From: Escherichia coli
GTDB lineage: Bacteria > Pseudomonadota > Gammaproteobacteria > Enterobacterales > Enterobacteriaceae
NCBI RefSeq assembly: GCF_009931435.1
Contig: NZ_CP043414.1
DNA length: 64,000 bases
Reading direction: 5' to 3' (one strand)
The translations under genes were made by a program, and so were the position numbers. The first letter of the stretch is position 1. Every line of letters starts with the position of its first letter. Below, piece by piece: positions 1 through 50,359 of the stretch. The notes beneath the pieces were generated by a model. It searched no databases. It worked only from the letters and a program-made list of their open reading frames with translations, and was not told the DNA's origin.

Positions 1-214
1 GGAAGTCCGGCGCGCTTTATACCACAAATACGTCGTGGACACCAATAATTGTTGGCGCTGTGTACAGCATCAGACGATGAATTTTCTATTATAGAAAACG
101 TTCAGTGGCACGTTTGGCGAAATTCAGAATGATTCTCAATTTGCCCGGGTGTGATACCATTGACGACACTTACATATATATTGTCGGTATCACCGACGCT
201 GATGGACAGAATTA

Positions 215-1009
215 ATGGCTATCTCAATCAAGACCCCAGAAGATATCGAAAAAATGCGCGTCGCTGGCCGACTGGCTGCCGAAGTGCTGGAAATGATCGA
301 ACCGTATGTTAAACCGGGCGTCAGCACCGGCGAGCTGGATCGCATCTGTAATGATTACATTGTTAATGAACAACACGCGGTTTCTGCCTGCCTCGGCTAT
401 CACGGCTATCCGAAATCCGTGTGTATCTCTATTAATGAAGTGGTATGCCACGGTATCCCTGACGACGCCAAGCTGCTGAAAGATGGCGATATCGTTAACA
501 TCGACGTCACTGTAATCAAAGATGGTTTCCACGGCGATACCTCAAAAATGTTTATCGTCGGTAAGCCAACCATCATGGGCGAACGTCTGTGCCGCGTAAC
601 GCAAGAGAGTCTTTACCTGGCGCTGCGCATGGTAAAACCGGGCATTAATCTGCGCGAAATCGGTGCGGCGATTCAGAAATTTGTCGAAGCAGAAGGCTTC
701 TCCGTCGTTCGTGAATATTGCGGACACGGTATTGGTCGCGGCTTCCACGAAGAACCGCAGGTGCTGCACTATGACTCCCGTGAAACCAACGTCGTGCTGA
801 AACCGGGGATGACCTTCACCATCGAGCCAATGGTCAACGCGGGCAAAAAAGAGATCCGCACCATGAAAGATGGCTGGACGGTAAAAACCAAAGATCGCAG
901 CTTGTCTGCACAATATGAGCATACTATTGTGGTGACCGATAACGGCTGCGAAATTCTGACGCTACGCAAGGATGACACCATCCCGGCGATAATCTCGCAC
1001 GAAGAATAA
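215..1009 (+). CDS. map: methionine aminopeptidase
   Basis: 264-aa ORF with the type I MetAP fold sequence; followed by an intrinsic terminator; synteny with glnD. Confidence 0.95.
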   Translation: MAISIKTPEDIEKMRVAGRLAAEVLEMIEPYVKPGVSTGELDRICNDYIVNEQHAVSACLGYHGYPKSVCISINEVVCHGIPDDAKLLKDGDIVNIDVTVIKDGFHGDTSKMFIVGKPTIMGERLCRVTQESLYLALRMVKPGINLREIGAAIQKFVEAEGFSVVREYCGHGIGRGFHEEPQVLHYDSRETNVVLKPGMTFTIEPMVNAGKKEIRTMKDGWTVKTKDRSLSAQYEHTIVVTDNGCEILTLRKDDTIPAIISHEE

Positions 1010-1013
1010 GATG

Positions 1014-1038
1014 AAGCCGGCGAATGCCGGCTTTTTTA
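1014..1038 (+). terminator. rho-independent terminator after map
   Basis: GC stem AAGCCGGC/GCCGGCTT with 4-nt loop followed by a T-run, 5 bp after the map stop. Confidence 0.75.
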
Positions 1039-1052
1039 ATACGATAATTTAA

Positions 1053-3743
<2,691 letters not shown>

Positions 3744-3773
3744 TGTGTTTACTGATATGAAAAGAGTTTAACA

Positions 3774-4598
3774 ATGCAGCAGTTACAGAACATTATTGAA
3801 ACCGCTTTTGAACGCCGTGCCGAGATCACGCCAGCCAATGCAGACACCGTTACCCGCGAAGCGGTAAATCAGGTGATCGCCCTGCTGGATTCCGGCGCAC
3901 TGCGTGTAGCGGAAAAAATTGACGGTCAGTGGGTGACGCATCAGTGGTTGAAAAAAGCGGTGCTGCTCTCTTTCCGTATTAATGATAATCAGGTGATCGA
4001 AGGGGCAGAAAGCCGCTACTTCGACAAAGTGCCGATGAAATTCGCTAACTACGATGAAGCACGTTTCCAGAAAGAAGGCTTCCGCGTCGTGCCACCAGCG
4101 GCAGTGCGTCAGGGCGCGTTCATTGCCCGTAACACCGTGCTGATGCCGTCTTACGTCAACATCGGCGCATATGTTGATGAAGGCACCATGGTTGATACCT
4201 GGGCGACCGTCGGTTCCTGTGCGCAGATTGGTAAAAACGTCCACCTTTCCGGTGGCGTGGGTATCGGCGGCGTGCTGGAGCCGCTGCAGGCTAACCCGAC
4301 CATTATTGAAGATAACTGCTTCATCGGCGCACGCTCTGAAGTGGTTGAAGGGGTGATTGTCGAAGAAGGTTCCGTCATCTCTATGGGCGTATACATTGGT
4401 CAGAGCACCCGTATTTACGACCGTGAAACCGGCGAAATCCACTACGGTCGCGTTCCGGCGGGGTCTGTGGTTGTGTCAGGTAATCTGCCGTCGAAAGATG
4501 GCAAATACAGCCTCTACTGTGCGGTTATCGTTAAGAAAGTTGACGCGAAAACTCGCGGCAAAGTTGGTATTAACGAACTGCTGCGTACCATTGACTAA
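3774..4598 (+). CDS. dapD: 2,3,4,5-tetrahydropyridine-2,6-dicarboxylate N-succinyltransferase
   Basis: 274-aa ORF with hexapeptide-repeat left-handed beta-helix sequence; synteny. Confidence 0.95.
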
Positions 4599-4910
4599 AA
4601 GTATGTACACGGGCAGCACGACGCTGCCCGATTGCTTTCTGGTTCAGAATAATTCGTCCTACTCATTCTTCTTCCCCTTTTTTAAATACTTTTTCATCTT
4701 GTTTCGGACTGTCATGTAATTCGCAAAACAAAGATAAATGTGCTAATCCATCCCATGGAATATCGCCAGAATAAAGCAGGTAATTTTTTGATTTTTACGC
4801 CATGATAGAAGTCTGGAAGAAAAAGGCTTTCTGCGATCACAGTCGAGCCGGGCGGGCCAGGCCAAATGCTAAAATAAGCACAATTTACTGACTCATTTTG
4901 AGGTAACGCT

Positions 4911-5297
4911 ATGTACGACAATCTGAAAAGTCTGGGTATTACCAATCCTGAAGAAATTGATCGTTACAGCCTCCGGCAGGAAGCCAACAACGATATTCTG
5001 AAAATCTATTTCCAGAAAGACAAAGGCGAGTTTTTCGCCAAGAGCGTGAAATTTAAATATCCACGTCAGCGCAAAACGGTCGTCGCTGATGGTGTGGGTC
5101 AAGGTTATAAAGAAGTACAGGAAATCAGCCCGAACCTGCGGTATATCATTGATGAACTTGATCAAATCTGCCAGCGTGACCGCAGCGAGGTCGATCTTAA
5201 GCGTAAGATCCTCGACGATTTACGTCACCTGGAATCAGTCGTCACTAACAAAATCAGCGAGATTGAAGCCGATCTGGAAAAACTGACGCGTAAATAA
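4911..5297 (+). CDS. yaeH: UPF0325/DUF3461 family protein YaeH
   Basis: 128-aa ORF recognised as YaeH; conserved neighbour of cdaR. Confidence 0.85.
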
Positions 5298-5309
5298 TGT
5301 CATTCTGTG

Positions 5310-5342
5310 GGCCGGGTAAAGTCTCACCCGGCTGTAATTTTG
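5310..5342 (+). terminator. candidate intrinsic terminator after yaeH
   Basis: stem GCCGGGT...ACCCGGC followed by TGTAATTTT. Confidence 0.45.
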
Positions 5343-5350
5343 TAATCGAC

Positions 5351-6508
5351 CTACCGCTCTTCATCTAGTTGCAGCGCCACATACAGCAGCAACCTGTCAT
5401 CAAAATTGCCCAAATCAAGCCCGGTCAGTTCCGATATACGATTAAGCCGATACTCAAGAGTATTACGATGAATAAACAACGCCTTTGACGTTGCCAGCGG
5501 TTGCACATTGTGGCGAAACCACGCCGCCAGCGTTCGCCGCAGCAAGCCGTTATTGTCCATCGCTTTCAGCCGCGCCAGCGGTCGCGCCAGTTCGTTGGCC
5601 TGCCAGTCGCCACGCAAACTGTCTAGCAACACAGGCAACATCAAATCCTGATAAAAATAGCAGCGACTTTCGGGCATCCGCTGTTTACCCACCACCATCG
5701 TCGTTTTCGCCGTACGATAAGAGCGGGCAATACTGCCTGGTCCGGTAAAATAGTTACCCAGCGAAACGCGAAAACGTAGCTGACCATACTCTTTCATGCG
5801 GGCAATCAGTTGTTCAACTCGCTTACGATGATCTTCTGCATCCCAGCGCCCAAACGAATTCAACGCCGGTTTCAACACCACCATTTCGGTCAGTGAAACA
5901 ATCGCCACCAGATTATTACGCTCGGGCGTAGTCAGCGCGTTTTGCAGTTGCTGTAACTCCGCCATTGCGCTATCCACGCCAAGTTGACCGCTATCGACCT
6001 CAACAATAGCCACCACTCGCGGTTGATTGAGATCGATCCCCAACCGTTGCGCCCATTCAGTGAGTGCGGGAGTATTCTCCTCCGCCTGAATCAGGTTCAT
6101 CACCAACTCTTCCCGCAAACGGCTATCCTGCGCCAACAGATGCATCAACCGCGACTGTTCCAGCATCATTTCAGCCGTCATGCAGACCAGTTCGCCATAT
6201 TTACGCAGATTCTCTGGTTCACCAGTCAGGCCGATTACGCCGACAATTTCACCTTCCAGCCGTAATGGTAGATTAATCCCCTGCCGCACACCGTGCAGAT
6301 GACGTGCCACCGCGTCATCGATATCGACGACTCGTCCCTGTGAAAGTACCAGCAATGCACCTTCGTGCAATTCACCAATACGCTCACGATCGCCGCTGCC
6401 GATAATACGCCCGCGGGCATCCATTACGTTAATATTGGTATCAATGATGCGCATGGTGCGCGCCACGATATCCTGCGCCATTTTGGTATCAAGATGCCAG
6501 CCAGCCAT
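5351..6508 (-). CDS. cdaR: carbohydrate diacid regulator (CdaR/SdaR)
   Basis: ORF 5351..6526; start placed at MAGWHLDT (385 aa); C-terminal PucR-type HTH. Confidence 0.9.
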   Translation of the reverse strand: MAGWHLDTKMAQDIVARTMRIIDTNINVMDARGRIIGSGDRERIGELHEGALLVLSQGRVVDIDDAVARHLHGVRQGINLPLRLEGEIVGVIGLTGEPENLRKYGELVCMTAEMMLEQSRLMHLLAQDSRLREELVMNLIQAEENTPALTEWAQRLGIDLNQPRVVAIVEVDSGQLGVDSAMAELQQLQNALTTPERNNLVAIVSLTEMVVLKPALNSFGRWDAEDHRKRVEQLIARMKEYGQLRFRVSLGNYFTGPGSIARSYRTAKTTMVVGKQRMPESRCYFYQDLMLPVLLDSLRGDWQANELARPLARLKAMDNNGLLRRTLAAWFRHNVQPLATSKALFIHRNTLEYRLNRISELTGLDLGNFDDRLLLYVALQLDEER

Positions 6509-6627
6509 AAGTCCTCCGTTATGCACGGCTTAGCATAAGGAAGTACGTAACGTACGGCATTGTGCAAATGCCCAAAGGATGAGGAAGATGTATGGAGTTG
6601 TGGTGAAGTTCACAGATTGTAAGGAGA

Positions 6628-6655
6628 ACCCCTTCCCGTTTTCAGGAAGGGGTTG
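6628..6655 (-). terminator. stem-loop downstream of degP
   Basis: perfect 10-bp palindrome AACCCCTTCC/GGAAGGGGTT 8 bp after the degP stop; no clear U-tract. Confidence 0.4.
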
Positions 6656-6662
6656 AGGAAGA

Positions 6663-8087
6663 TTACTGCATTAACAGATAGATGGTGCTGTCGCCGCGCT
6701 GAATATTCAGTGCCAGCACAGACGGTTTGCTGTCGAGAACTTTACGCAGTTCAGCGATGTTTTTCACTGCCTGCTGGTTCGCACCAATAATCACATCACC
6801 TTTCTTCAGGCCGATCTGCGCAGCTGGAGTGCCCGTTTTCACGTTGTTCACCACCACGCCCTGATCTTTGCCTTTGTTGCTCATCTCAGCGCCTTCAATG
6901 CCGTTGAAGATGGTGCTGGAATCAACCTGATTCTGGCTGCTCTGCTGCAGTTCCAGGTTCACGTTAACCTGCTTCCCGTCGCGCAGTAAGCCCAGGGTCA
7001 GTTTGCTGCCTACCGGCATAGTGCCCACCTGAGCACGCAGTGCGGCAAAGCTGCTGATTGGCTTACCGTTCAGTGAGGTGATCACATCACCCGCTTTAAT
7101 GCCCGCTTTCGCGGCGGAAGAATTCGGCAGAACCTGGCTTACGAAAGCACCGCGCTGGGCGTCAACTTTCATCGCTTTCGCCAGATCGGAGTTCAGCTCA
7201 GTCCCCATAATACCCAGCTCACCGCGTTTCACCTGGCCGTATTCCACCATCTGCGAGGTCAGGTTTTTCACCATGTTACTCGGGATAGCAAAACCGATAC
7301 CGATGTTGCCGCCGTCCGGTGCGAGGATCGCGGTGTTGATACCGATCAGTTCGCCGTTCAGGTTAACCAGCGCACCACCGGAGTTACCACGGTTGATCGC
7401 AGCATCGGTCTGGATGAAGTTTTCATAGTTTTCGGCATTCAGACCGCTACGCCCCAGCGCAGAGACAATCCCGGAAGTTACCGTCTCACCCAGACCAAAC
7501 GGGTTACCAATTGCTACGGTGTAATCACCCACGCGCAGTGCATCAGAATCCGCCATCTTAATTGCGGTCAGATTTTTCGGGTTCTGGATCTGGATCAGCG
7601 CGATATCAGAGCGCGGATCTTTGCCAACCATCTTCGCGTCGAACTTACGACCATCGCTCAGCTGGACTTTAATCACCGTCGCGTTATCAACAACGTGGTT
7701 GTTGGTGACGACATAGCCTTTATCGGCATCAATGATGACGCCGGAACCCAGCGCCATGAATTTCTGTTGCTGGCCGCCGCCATTACCGCCCTGGCCCCCC
7801 TGGCAGAACGGAGAGCTCTGGAACGGAGAACCTTCCTGGCAGAACGGAGAATCATCACCGAAGAACTGCTGGAAATTACGCGGCATACGCGGCGTATTAA
7901 CGGTTGTGCTACCTTCTACGTTAATGCTGACCACTGAAGGCATCACCTTTTCGAGCATCGGTGCAAGGCTTGGCATCTGCTGGGCTGTCGTTGCTGAAGA
8001 AGTCTCAGCCGCCGTTGCAGAGAGCGGAGATAACGCCAAACCTAAACTCAGAGCCAGTGCACTCAGTGCTAATGTGGTTTTTTTCAT
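6663..8087 (-). CDS. degP: periplasmic serine endoprotease DegP/HtrA
   Basis: 474-aa ORF with signal peptide, trypsin-like catalytic region (GNSGGAL) and two PDZ domains. Confidence 0.95.
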   Translation of the reverse strand: MKKTTLALSALALSLGLALSPLSATAAETSSATTAQQMPSLAPMLEKVMPSVVSINVEGSTTVNTPRMPRNFQQFFGDDSPFCQEGSPFQSSPFCQGGQGGNGGGQQQKFMALGSGVIIDADKGYVVTNNHVVDNATVIKVQLSDGRKFDAKMVGKDPRSDIALIQIQNPKNLTAIKMADSDALRVGDYTVAIGNPFGLGETVTSGIVSALGRSGLNAENYENFIQTDAAINRGNSGGALVNLNGELIGINTAILAPDGGNIGIGFAIPSNMVKNLTSQMVEYGQVKRGELGIMGTELNSDLAKAMKVDAQRGAFVSQVLPNSSAAKAGIKAGDVITSLNGKPISSFAALRAQVGTMPVGSKLTLGLLRDGKQVNVNLELQQSSQNQVDSSTIFNGIEGAEMSNKGKDQGVVVNNVKTGTPAAQIGLKKGDVIIGANQQAVKNIAELRKVLDSKPSVLALNIQRGDSTIYLLMQ

Positions 8088-8132
8088 GTATTTCAGTCTC
8101 GATTAACAGATAACGCAAAATTGCTGTGTTCT

Positions 8133-8160
8133 TCAGATTCGTTTTATAGCGCGAAGTTCC
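8133..8160 (-). promoter_or_regulatory. sigmaE-type promoter upstream of degP
   Basis: on the minus strand GGAACTT, 16-bp spacer, TCTGA, about 45 bp upstream of the degP start; GTAAA-type CpxR half-sites lie further upstream. Confidence 0.55.
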
Positions 8161-8216
8161 GAACTAAAGTTTCTGCAAAAGGTAAAAATTTATTGTTCGT
8201 CTTTACAAAAGCCTGG

Positions 8217-9734
8217 TTATTGTTCTACGGCCATCAGACGTCGGTATTCATCCCAGGCATAGAGGTCGGTCATACCGCTGATATAATCCTGCAGCAGGCG
8301 GCAACGGTAATAATATTCCCATAGCGGAAACTCAGGAGAATCTGACGGTAATTTACTGACAGCCTCGACATAGGCCAGCCGATGGCGCGTCGAGAGTTTG
8401 TGGAATAAGCGCGATTCAATAGGGAAACGTTTCACCCGTTCTTTTTCTACCAGTTCAGTAAAGTCTGATAACGACAGGCTTAATAAAGGGCGATAAATCT
8501 CTAATAATCCGCTAATGACCCGATAGCCCTGCAATTCAAGCTGCTCGACATCTGGATGGCTAAACACATGTTTTACAGCGACATTTTTATATAGCTTTAG
8601 AAGATCGCTGCATTCGCTGGCATCTTCCAATAATGCATGATTAAACGTTCCGGCGAAAATCGCAGGCAGATTATCAATAAATCGTTGTGCCGCGTAGGGT
8701 ACCAGTTTATTTAGGGTGTTTACCCGTAAATACATAAAAAACTGATCTTCCGTACTGCGGCTTAAACTATTTGAGCGTGATTTTTCCCAGGCATTTTCAA
8801 CCACCAGCGAAAAGAGCGAACCTTTCTCATGCTGGCCCCACGCTTCGTGCAAATGATGATAAAGCTGCTCAACGCTGAATATTCTTTTCTCTACCGCATC
8901 TTCAAGATCTGCCACACAATAGGAGATGTCGTCGGCAGCTTCCATAATCCACGTTAATGGAAAACGACTGTAAAGCGCCAAATTAAGTTCTTTACGCAAC
9001 CGGGCAATATAGGCTTCTTCAGAAAGATAATAACCCGGCTTTTTCATTAAATAGTGATGTGTCTCAGGCGTTTCACCACGCCACCACGCCGGACGAGTAT
9101 ATTTTAAAATACCGCCAACCTGTGCCCAGGTGAGATTCATCCGCATCAATGTATGCACCAGACGAATGCCTTGTGCATTCCCCTCAAAATGACATAAGTC
9201 CTGACGTATTTTGCGCCGCAGCTCGTTAAGCGGTTCTTCCCCGTCCCGTAAACGTAGTGCTGCCACGCTGCAGCGATCGTCAGTCAGAGGCTGGCTTTCG
9301 GCATCAGCCGGATACAAACGCTGGCGAAACCAGTCATTTATCGCCGCTTCGCCAAAATGGCCAAACGGCGGATTGCCGATATCGTGCATCAGGCATGACA
9401 TCTCAACAATACTTTCAAAAGGGCCGGTCAGTTCATCCAGACCATACTCTTCCAGTAATTTAAGCTCTTTCAGACGGCTTAAAATTTCTTTGGCGATGTA
9501 GCGCCCCACCTGCTGGACTTCCATTGAATGGGTAAGACGCGTGCGCACGGCGGCATTTCGCTCCAGCGGAAAAACCTGGGTCTTTTGTTGCAGACGACGA
9601 ATTGCCGGAGAGTTGATAATACGCCCGCGATCGCTCTCAAAGATTCGCAGGATCTCATGTTCGGTTTTAACGCCCTGTGGTGAACGGTAACGACGATGCC
9701 AGTTTATTTTTTTTCGGAAATCAATCTGTGCCAT
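8217..9734 (-). CDS. dgt: dGTP triphosphohydrolase
   Basis: 505-aa ORF with HD-domain motifs ([10 protein letters not shown]). Confidence 0.93.
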
Positions 9735-9817
9735 GTCCTCTCCCGCGTGAGAAATACGCTTCCCCGTAAGCGCATGGTAAACTATGCCTTCAAATCGGGC
9801 TTATCGCGAGTAAATCT

Positions 9818-10516
9818 ATGAAAATCGGCATCATTGGTGCAATGGAAGAAGAAGTTACGCTGCTGCGTGACAAAATCGAAAACCGCCAAACTATCAGTCT
9901 GGGCGGTTGCGAAATCTATACCGGCCAACTGAATGGAACCGAAGTTGCGCTTCTGAAATCGGGCATCGGTAAAGTCGCTGCGGCACTGGGTGCAACTCTG
10001 CTGTTGGAACACTGCAAGCCAGATGTGATTATTAACACCGGTTCTGCCGGTGGCCTGGCGCCAACGCTGAAAGTGGGCGATATCGTTGTCTCGGACGAAG
10101 CACGTTATCACGACGCGGATGTCACGGCATTTGGTTACGAATACGGTCAGTTACCTGGCTGCCCGGCTGGCTTCAAAGCTGACGATAAACTGATCGCTGC
10201 CGCTGAGGCCTGCATTGCCGAACTGAATCTTAACGCTGTACGTGGCCTGATTGTCAGCGGCGACGCTTTCATCAACGGTTCTGTTGGCCTGGCGAAAATC
10301 CGCCACAACTTCCCGCAGGCCATTGCTGTAGAGATGGAAGCGACGGCAATCGCTCATGTCTGCCACAATTTTAACGTCCCGTTTGTTGTCGTACGCGCCA
10401 TCTCCGACGTGGCCGATCAACAGTCTCATCTTAGCTTCGATGAGTTCCTGGCTGTTGCTGCTAAACAGTCCAGCCTGATGGTTGAGTCACTGGTGCAGAA
10501 ACTGGCACATGGCTAA
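9818..10516 (+). CDS. mtnN: 5'-methylthioadenosine/S-adenosylhomocysteine nucleosidase
   Basis: 232-aa ORF recognised as Pfs/MtnN. Confidence 0.95.
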
Positions 10517-11309
10517 GTCACTGTTCAGGGCGCTGGTCGCCCTGTCTTTTCTCGCCCCTCTGTGGCTCAACGCCGCACCGCGCGTCATCACGCTTTCACC
10601 CGCCAACACTGAACTTGCTTTTGCCGCCGGGATCACGCCGGTTGGGGTCAGCAGTTATTCCGACTACCCTCCACAAGCGCAAAAGATTGAGCAGGTTTCA
10701 ACCTGGCAGGGGATGAATCTCGAACGCATTGTGGCCCTTAAACCCGATCTGGTGATTGCCTGGCGTGGAGGTAATGCCGAGCGGCAGGTTGGCCAGTTAG
10801 CTTCGCTGGGAATAAAAGTGATGTGGGTCGATGCGACAAGCATTGAACAAATTGCCAATGCGTTACGTCAACTGGCCCCCTGGAGTCCACAACCAGACAA
10901 GGCCGAACAAGCCGCACAATCCCTGCTGGACCAGTACGCACAATTGAAAGCGCAATATGCTGATAAACCTAAAAAACGTGTTTTTCTGCAATTCGGCATT
11001 AATCCGCCATTTACCAGTGGAAAAGAGTCGATTCAAAACCAGGTACTCGAAGTTTGTGGCGGAGAAAACATCTTTAAAGACAGCCGGGTTCCCTGGCCGC
11101 AAGTTAGCCGCGAACAGGTGTTAGCACGCGCGCCACAGGCGATTGTCATTACAGGCGGACCGGACCAAATTCCTAAAATCAAACAATACTGGGGTGAACA
11201 GCTCAAAATTCCCGTTATTCCTCTCACGAGTGACTGGTTTGAACGTGCAAGCCCACGTATTATCCTCGCTGCACAACAGCTCTGTAATGCGCTTTCACAG
11301 GTAGATTAG
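10509..11309 (+). CDS. btuF: vitamin B12 periplasmic binding protein
   Basis: ORF 10482..11309; start placed at MAKSLFRAL with signal peptide (266 aa); overlaps mtnN 3' end by 8 nt. Confidence 0.9.
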
Positions 11310-11346
11310 CGCCTGATCTTTTCAGGTGCTCAGTGGGGATTGAACA

Positions 11347-11970
11347 ATGCTCGTCTATTGGCTGGATATAGTCGGCACAGCGGTATTTGCCATCTCCGGC
11401 GTTTTGTTAGCCGGAAAATTGCGTATGGACCCTTTTGGTGTTCTGGTACTGGGCGTGGTTACCGCAGTAGGCGGCGGGACAATTCGCGACATGGCGCTGG
11501 ATCACGGCCCGGTCTTTTGGGTGAAAGATCCCACCGATCTGGTTGTTGCAATGGTGACCAGCATGCTGACGATCGTGCTGGTGCGCCAGCCAAGACGCTT
11601 ACCGAAATGGATGTTGCCGGTGCTGGATGCCGTTGGTCTGGCGGTGTTTGTCGGCATTGGCGTGAATAAAGCCTTTAATGCGGAAGCCGGTCCGTTAATC
11701 GCGGTTTGTATGGGCGTCATTACTGGCGTTGGCGGCGGGATCATTCGTGATGTACTGGCCCGCGAAATCCCCATGATTTTACGCACAGAAATCTACGCAA
11801 CGGCCTGTATTATCGGCGGTATTGTCCACGCTACGGCTTATTACACATTTTCCGTACCACTGGAAACAGCCAGTATGATGGGCATGGTCGTGACGCTATT
11901 GATTCGGCTGGCGGCTATTCGTTGGCATCTTAAGCTACCGACGTTTGCGCTGGATGAGAATGGGCGTTGA
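11347..11970 (+). CDS. yadS: UPF0126 inner-membrane protein YadS
   Basis: 207-aa hydrophobic ORF with duplicated glycine-rich motif (GGGTIRD / GGGIIRD). Confidence 0.85.
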   Translation: MLVYWLDIVGTAVFAISGVLLAGKLRMDPFGVLVLGVVTAVGGGTIRDMALDHGPVFWVKDPTDLVVAMVTSMLTIVLVRQPRRLPKWMLPVLDAVGLAVFVGIGVNKAFNAEAGPLIAVCMGVITGVGGGIIRDVLAREIPMILRTEIYATACIIGGIVHATAYYTFSVPLETASMMGMVVTLLIRLAAIRWHLKLPTFALDENGR

Positions 11971-11979
11971 AGAGAGAAG

Positions 11980-12006
11980 ATGTGCCGGATAGTTTATCCG
12001 GCACAT
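11980..12006. terminator. hairpin between convergent yadS and erpA
   Basis: 11-bp inverted repeat ATGTGCCGGAT/ATCCGGCACAT with 5-nt loop; no strong U-tract. Confidence 0.4.
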
Positions 12007-50215: not shown

Positions 50216-50359
50216 TTGCTGACAAAGTGCGCTTTGTTCATGCCGGATGCGGCGAAAACGCCTTATCCGGCCTACTAAAACTCGCAAATTCAATAAATTG
50301 CAGAGTTCACGTAGGCCTGATAAGCGTAGCGCATCAGGCAGTTTTGCGTTTGTCAGCAG
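50216..50359. repeat. REP pair (BIME) in the gcd-cueO intergenic region
   Basis: GCCGGATGCGGCGAAAACGCCTTATCCGGCCTAC and inverted GTAGGCCTGATAAGCGTAGCGCATCAGGC; flanked by inverted 10-mers TGCTGACAAA / TTTGTCAGCA. Confidence 0.8.

Follow-up and report, generated by a model that had tools for sequence, protein, structure and literature searches.

Escherichia coli K-12 carries yaeI between dapD and yaeH, and the 64,000-nucleotide stretch of E. coli DNA analysed here (the window) joins the same two genes without it. How did this gene-free junction arise, and how ordinary is it? The left end of the window holds map (215-1009), glnD (1071-3743), dapD (3774-4598) and yaeH (4911-5297), all on the + strand, followed downstream of yaeH by cdaR, degP and dgt on the − strand; apart from the lack of yaeI, the arrangement is that of K-12 read as the reverse complement. 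Two genes border the junction:

3774-4598, + strand: dapD (tetrahydrodipicolinate N-succinyltransferase), the left flank; a 274-aa ORF, named from the RefSeq annotation of matching E. coli loci.
4911-5297, + strand: yaeH (DUF3461), the right flank; Pfam PF11944, E = 2.4e-55, and named yaeH in matching genomes.

The gap between them, 4599-4910, measures 312 bp. A tblastn search with K-12-type YaeI as the query returned no match at E <= 1e-3 anywhere in the 64-kb window, while DapD and YaeH, searched alongside, matched at 100%; the ~270-aa ORF expected of a phosphodiesterase YaeI (NF008460/PF00149) between dapD and yaeH is not there. A first, sequence-only reading of this DNA had described a 312-bp gap without yaeI, and that description is confirmed. 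Its statement that K-12 yaeI sits between yaeH and dapD on the opposite strand was right in position and wrong in orientation: yaeI runs in the same direction as both neighbours, and is a minus-strand gene only in K-12 numbering, of which the window is the reverse complement. In our reading, a presence/absence polymorphism of long standing exists at this junction; the 312-bp spacer is the form that most E. coli carry, and is very likely the decayed scar of a two-gene insert composed of yaeI and a second gene, here termed geneX.

The missing gene is real, yet the window type is a common E. coli allele. The dapD-yaeH locus is found in 5,424 of 5,426 complete E. coli genomes. A single copy of the spacer core (window 4640-4770), at 93-100% identity, occurs in 3,338 of the 5,426 (61.5%), and yaeI occurs in 2,084 (38.4%), K-12 among them. 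Together these counts account for 5,422 of the 5,424 genomes with the locus, so that one allele all but excludes the other, and most genomes have the yaeI-free form. Strains of the yaeI-free type include O157:H7, O55:H7, IHE3034 and ZH063; yaeI occurs in the K-12 derivatives. The sequence-only reading had conceded that its claim would fall if this spacer were standard in most E. coli, and the census (3,338 genomes against 2,084 with yaeI) places it there. K-12 thus represents the minority state at dapD-yaeH, and a gene missing relative to K-12 is no anomaly at this junction; for biology overall, the observation carries little weight. The yaeI-free allele is visible, though unannotated, in thousands of public genomes, and our literature search found no paper on a presence/absence polymorphism at dapD-yaeH; yaeI itself is named in the literature only in passing, in a sigma-70 SELEX table (PMC3946193) and in a T7 Tn-seq hit list. 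Where yaeI is present, its alleles are unusually divergent: searched against the E. coli genomes with the K-12-type copy (L001, 1753-2565), 261 of the 2,084 lie at 90-95% and 75 of the 2,084 at 80-90% nucleotide identity to the K-12 allele. Core genes are typically much more similar than this, which suggests that the haplotypes are deep or that alleles were imported from other Escherichia species.

The likely parent of the spacer is visible in other genomes. In Escherichia sp. MOD1-EC7003 (L014), dapD and yaeH are 1,710 bp apart, and the gap holds yaeI together with a 236-aa ORF, geneX. The intact arrangement dapD-yaeI-geneX-yaeH recurs in ‘E. coli’ GF43 (L083), where geneX is annotated as a hypothetical protein, in E. 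albertii (L092-L094), in Pseudocitrobacter cyperus (L095) and at one further locus (L097); geneX without yaeI is found at L099, and its product there is a protein that NCBI names from Enterobacter sp. kpr-6. GeneX encodes a 235-245-aa protein without family assignment. Its homologues at 55-94% identity, drawn from several genera, all end in CEPVPWGIA[KR]IKQVIF (12 aligned homologues), and remoter homologues at 34-38% identity keep the E-x-V-P-W core of this motif. YaeI belongs to NCBIfam NF008460 (phosphodiesterase YaeI; 531 bits for the K-12-type protein) and Pfam Metallophos PF00149, with a weak Tat-signal match and partial similarity to LpxG. Outside Escherichia it is rare in enteric bacteria, where a few homologues reach 64-69% identity; its next relatives, at 55-58% identity, are in Verrucomicrobia, a distribution consistent with horizontal acquisition.

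The intact cassettes of MOD1-EC7003, GF43, E. albertii and P. cyperus occupy the same insertion point between dapD and yaeH as the window spacer, and the two share homology in the terminator, at the 3′ end of geneX and between geneX and yaeH; both genes are intact in the cassette, whereas both are gone from the window save for the geneX tail. From dapD to yaeH, the window spacer is made up of the following parts:

4610-4640, + strand: intrinsic-terminator-like hairpin with an interrupted T-rich tail, ATTGCTTTCT; from a terminator scan and RNA folding.
4634-4740, no strand assigned: AT-rich segment found only in the yaeI-free allele; 107 bp, 33.6% G+C.
4741-4791, + strand: geneX 3′ remnant, reading C, stop, SIPWNIARIKQVIF and then TGA; the last 16 codons, with an in-frame TAA at 4744-4746.
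4792-4910, + strand: conserved yaeH upstream region (putative promoter and 5′ UTR), corresponding to the geneX-yaeH intergenic region of the cassette.

At 4741-4788, the motif that ends geneX can be recognised. A tblastn comparison aligned the geneX tail here with 12 of 16 identities (E = 2e-5 locally, 0.005 against the whole window); upstream of 4741, no similarity to geneX reached significance. The tail lies on the + strand immediately upstream of yaeH, in the position and orientation that geneX has in the cassette, and its frame is both truncated and interrupted. At the DNA level, MOD1-EC7003 and E. albertii (L093) match the segment from 4738/4741 to 4910 at 91% identity, across the 3′ end of geneX and the DNA between it and yaeH. 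For cassette loci of other genera, identity over 4753-4910 is 74-80%, and this stretch has its homologue downstream of geneX in every cassette locus. Because the tail is conserved in geneX across genera and the DNA downstream of it is homologous as well, the tail is native to geneX and the window holds its remnant. In most E. coli, a 16-codon gene fragment now adjoins the yaeH upstream region.

That upstream region itself has changed little. Positions 4792-4910 are 99% identical to K-12-type loci, and among 19 typical yaeI-free spacers only 4 columns in 118 nt vary; a GAGG at 4900-4903 stands 7 nt before the yaeH ATG. We read these 118 nt as the putative promoter and leader of yaeH. A sigma-70 holoenzyme binding site has been mapped in the K-12 yaeI/yaeH spacer (PMC3946193); our promoter scan of 4500-5000 returned no sigma-70-like site, and the hexamers were not located.

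Comparison with the K-12 type (L001; dapD-yaeI-yaeH, b0166-b0164-b0163) indicates a replacement and not a simple insertion or deletion. The flanking genes and the dapD terminator hairpin are the same, and the 150 bp upstream of yaeH are 99% identical; the left flank is common through the terminator, ending in GCTGCCCGATT, to 4633, and the right flank is common from ~4761, beginning with ATATCRCCAGAATAAAG. Between these limits, the K-12 type has ~840 bp comprising the 813-bp yaeI, and the window has ~127 bp (4634-4760) that K-12 lacks, 107 bp of them the unique AT-rich DNA. Of geneX, K-12-type loci keep only VNFITRIKQVIF and a stop, ~12 codons that look like the first few codons of geneX fused to its last nine. 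As the K-12 type retains nine end codons and the window 16, and the breakpoints differ, the two alleles are separate deletion products of the cassette, and deletion alone cannot turn either into the other.

The outgroups place both E. coli alleles in context. A YaeH scan of GTDB species representatives yielded 80 loci, a set that Salmonella and E. fergusonii did not enter. In this set, dapD and yaeH are 109-125 bp apart, without yaeI, in more than 70 further species of Enterobacteriaceae, from Citrobacter, Klebsiella, Enterobacter, Raoultella, Kosakonia, Cedecea, Atlantibacter, Mangrovibacter and other genera. The short spacers resemble one another, having in common the conserved block TTCGTTAATTATTC and a GCGGG..CCCGC terminator followed by T7. 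Like the window, this typical ~110-bp spacer is gene-free, with dapD and yaeH adjacent and in the same direction, but its terminator and yaeH upstream region differ from those of the window; visual comparison shows a resemblance only in the ~14 nt that precede the ATG, around the ribosome-binding site, and BLAST detected no similarity between the window spacer and the ~110-bp outgroup spacers. It follows that the window spacer does not preserve the ancestral state of the enterobacterial junction. Within the genus, the same scar is present at 94.9% identity in Escherichia sp. E1V33 (L008), a separate GTDB species representative, and both E. whittamii and the type strain of E. albertii have alleles with yaeI only. 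The polymorphism is thus old, or recombination through the very conserved flanking genes has moved it. Two of the surveyed loci have longer gaps without yaeI, of 2,590 bp in Enterobacter wuhouensis (L055) and 649 bp in Enterobacter sp. BIGb0383 (L063); other DNA has been inserted there, and the junction may thus be a recurrent insertion site.

Taken together, a model for the junction emerges. In an ancestor within or before Escherichia, a dapD-yaeH spacer of ~110 bp would have been replaced by a cassette of yaeI and geneX. We infer the number and order of the deletion events that followed, which would have generated three derived forms: i) yaeI alone, with geneX cut to ~12 codons, which is the K-12 type and accounts for 38% of E. 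coli; ii) geneX alone, as seen in another genus; and iii) neither gene, the window type, at 61% of E. coli. What the window would retain is the dapD hairpin, taken as functional; ~107 bp of AT-rich, indel-prone DNA, taken as non-functional; the last 16 geneX codons, broken by a stop; and the native geneX-yaeH region, which would supply the promoter and ribosome-binding site of yaeH. So read, the junction offers a clear example of a two-gene insert decaying through independent deletions, and it draws attention to a partner gene of yaeI, uncharacterised and absent from K-12.

The sequence-only reading had offered a choice between a clean deletion and an ancestral gene-free state, and neither is right as stated, given the geneX remnant and the ~127 bp that are absent from K-12. 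Were the 312-bp spacer original in Escherichia, with yaeI (alone or together with geneX) inserted later in K-12-like lineages, its status as the majority allele, its presence in a second Escherichia species representative (L008) and the patchy, seemingly horizontal distribution of YaeI, with next relatives in Verrucomicrobia at 55-58%, would all follow readily. We nevertheless hold this to be very unlikely. A spacer that predates the cassette should not contain the 16 terminal geneX codons, interrupted by a stop, since this tail is intrinsic to geneX in other genera. Nor should its right-hand ~160 bp (4753-4910) be the native downstream region of geneX in the cassettes of those genera; where the junction is truly gene-free, as in more than 70 other species, the spacer is ~110 bp long and unrelated. 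Still less probable, to the point of being barely tenable, is a clean, recent deletion of yaeI from a K-12-type dapD-yaeI-yaeH locus. The flanks that K-12-type loci have in common with the window, up to GCTGCCCGATT and from ATATCRCCAGAATAAAG, are what such an event would leave, but a deletion cannot create the ~127 bp (4634-4760) that the K-12 type lacks, which include geneX codons 221-227. The allele is, moreover, old, being present in 3,338 genomes at 93-100% identity and in another Escherichia species, and the short direct repeats that the sequence-only reading proposed to look for do not, by inspection, flank the breakpoints.

A third alternative is that yaeI was replaced by a functional product of the spacer, whether a small RNA or a lysine-rich micro-protein. 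The protein candidate is a single feature:

4659-4715, − strand: 18-codon ORF, MTVRNKMKKYLKKGKKNE followed by a stop; identified by translation and judged a chance ORF.

The existence of this lysine-rich minus-strand ORF had been reported correctly, although its coordinates (4717..4661) were off by 2 nt and should read 4715..4659; it was also said to have no obvious ribosome-binding site, and indeed no Shine-Dalgarno sequence is found in the 20 nt upstream. We compared 19 typical yaeI-free spacers (11 distinct, 309-314 bp), in which the first 13 codons are nearly invariant and the block 4678-4742 varies little (5 variable columns in 65, in a small sample of related sequences). This conservation is what speaks for a product, and the low variation in 4678-4742 could hint at constraint. 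The frame, on which the earlier reading had suggested a conservation check, is not conserved: indels of 1-5 nt in the C/T run, not multiples of three, switch the frame after codon 13 and produce three different C-termini, with ORF lengths of 16-40 aa across the typical spacers and 44 aa in the aberrant spacer of E. coli BS-04. An ATG ORF of at least 18 codons arises in 90% of shuffles of the spacer, and no gene is called at this position in 9 public assemblies. On the RNA side, a scan of the whole window at Rfam 15 gathering thresholds returned nothing in 4599-4910, and the sole match under permissive settings, sroE, fell on the terminator hairpin at 22.7 bits, against a cut-off of 51; the region 4500-5000, as above, yielded no sigma-70-like promoter. 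With neither a ribosome-binding site nor a frame conserved among strains, we judge the 18-codon ORF to have arisen by chance as the opposite strand of a pyrimidine-rich tract, and not to be a gene; a functional replacement of yaeI is, in our view, very unlikely.

On the reading of the spacer as a decayed cassette scar, the segment that is least readily explained is 4634-4740. The sequence-only reading had noted an AT-rich stretch in the gap, which is borne out by a G+C content of 33.6%, as compared to 52.1% for the whole window; the segment is absent from K-12-type loci. We searched for its origin by Smith-Waterman alignment to the yaeI/geneX islands of six loci, on both strands, with mono- and dinucleotide shuffles as controls. 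DNA alignment to the cassette recovered only short T-rich runs, such as 15 of 17 nt matching yaeI codons 39-44, at p ~0.02-0.04, and yaeI codons 28-60 appeared as a source in one of six targets at p ~0.02 under permissive scoring; an nhmmer profile built from five cassettes did not match the segment. Our own frameshift-tolerant protein-to-DNA chaining method pointed to the 5′ end of geneX at p ~0.03-0.04, picking out FVLLILLPL (4653-4679, residues 8-16) and LNTFSSCF (4682-4705, residues 28-35); by the same method, YaeI was not significant (p ~0.13-0.18), nor were reversed profiles. Neither the geneX nor the yaeI reading survives correction for multiple testing, and the two assignments overlap on the same bases and are mutually exclusive. 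The segment is probably decayed cassette DNA, which is the simplest reading, but could alternatively be foreign “filler” DNA inserted during the deletion; we take it to be non-functional. Its C/T-rich tract at ~4666-4683 is a hot spot of length variation, and in 19 genomes the spacers of 309-314 bp differ almost only there. The BS-04 locus (L091, 1397-1693) departs further, with a 297-bp spacer whose left part is rewritten and T/C-rich and in which a 28-bp deletion removes the start of the geneX tail; this could reflect genuine variation or an error of long-read assembly.

Left of the AT-rich segment, the hairpin after dapD that the sequence-only reading had seen is present at 4610-4630, where CGGGCAGC and GCTGCCCG enclose the 5-nt loop ACGAC. 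The stem (4610-4617 paired with 4623-4630) has 8 pairs, 7 of them G-C, with a predicted energy of -21 kcal/mol (z = -2.9 against shuffles). This G+C-rich stem-loop stands directly after the dapD stop codon, is common to the window and the yaeI-bearing alleles, and most likely terminates dapD transcription. The U-tract, on the other hand, differs: in the window, ATTGCTTTCT is interrupted, with 6 T in 10, whereas the yaeI-bearing alleles have ATTTTTTT with an uninterrupted T7. Given this interruption, termination efficiency may differ between the window allele and the yaeI-bearing alleles.

A more far-reaching proposal concerns the cassette itself. YaeI and geneX might form a functionally coupled, horizontally mobile module. 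Rather than reflecting neutral decay, its four states (both genes, yaeI alone, geneX alone, none) would then be kept as a trans-species polymorphism in Escherichia by a trade-off, in which, for example, modification of the envelope or LPS is balanced against susceptibility to phages. YaeI would then be an LpxG-like metallophosphoesterase with a predicted Tat signal peptide, and geneX a Cys/His-motif protein, for which a confidently predicted structural model matches no solved fold. We offer this as a speculation with a slim chance of being correct.

Several observations fall outside these questions. Over window positions 1-12000, the best identity to any of the 5,426 complete E. coli genomes is 98.2-98.7% over 12 kb, and the best-matching flanks come from yaeI-bearing genomes, although the window is without yaeI. 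At this level of identity, the window derives from a lineage with no close representative in that set, such as a divergent E. coli clade or Shigella. A few matches fall on records labelled as plasmids (three for dapD-yaeH, two for the spacer core and one for yaeI), which may be mislabelled replicons or captured chromosomal segments. Elsewhere in the window, two Rfam matches exceed their thresholds: the HtrA 5′ UTR thermometer upstream of degP (8082-8127, − strand, 77 bits) and the ES036/CssrF sRNA (50277-50318, + strand, 41.3 bits).
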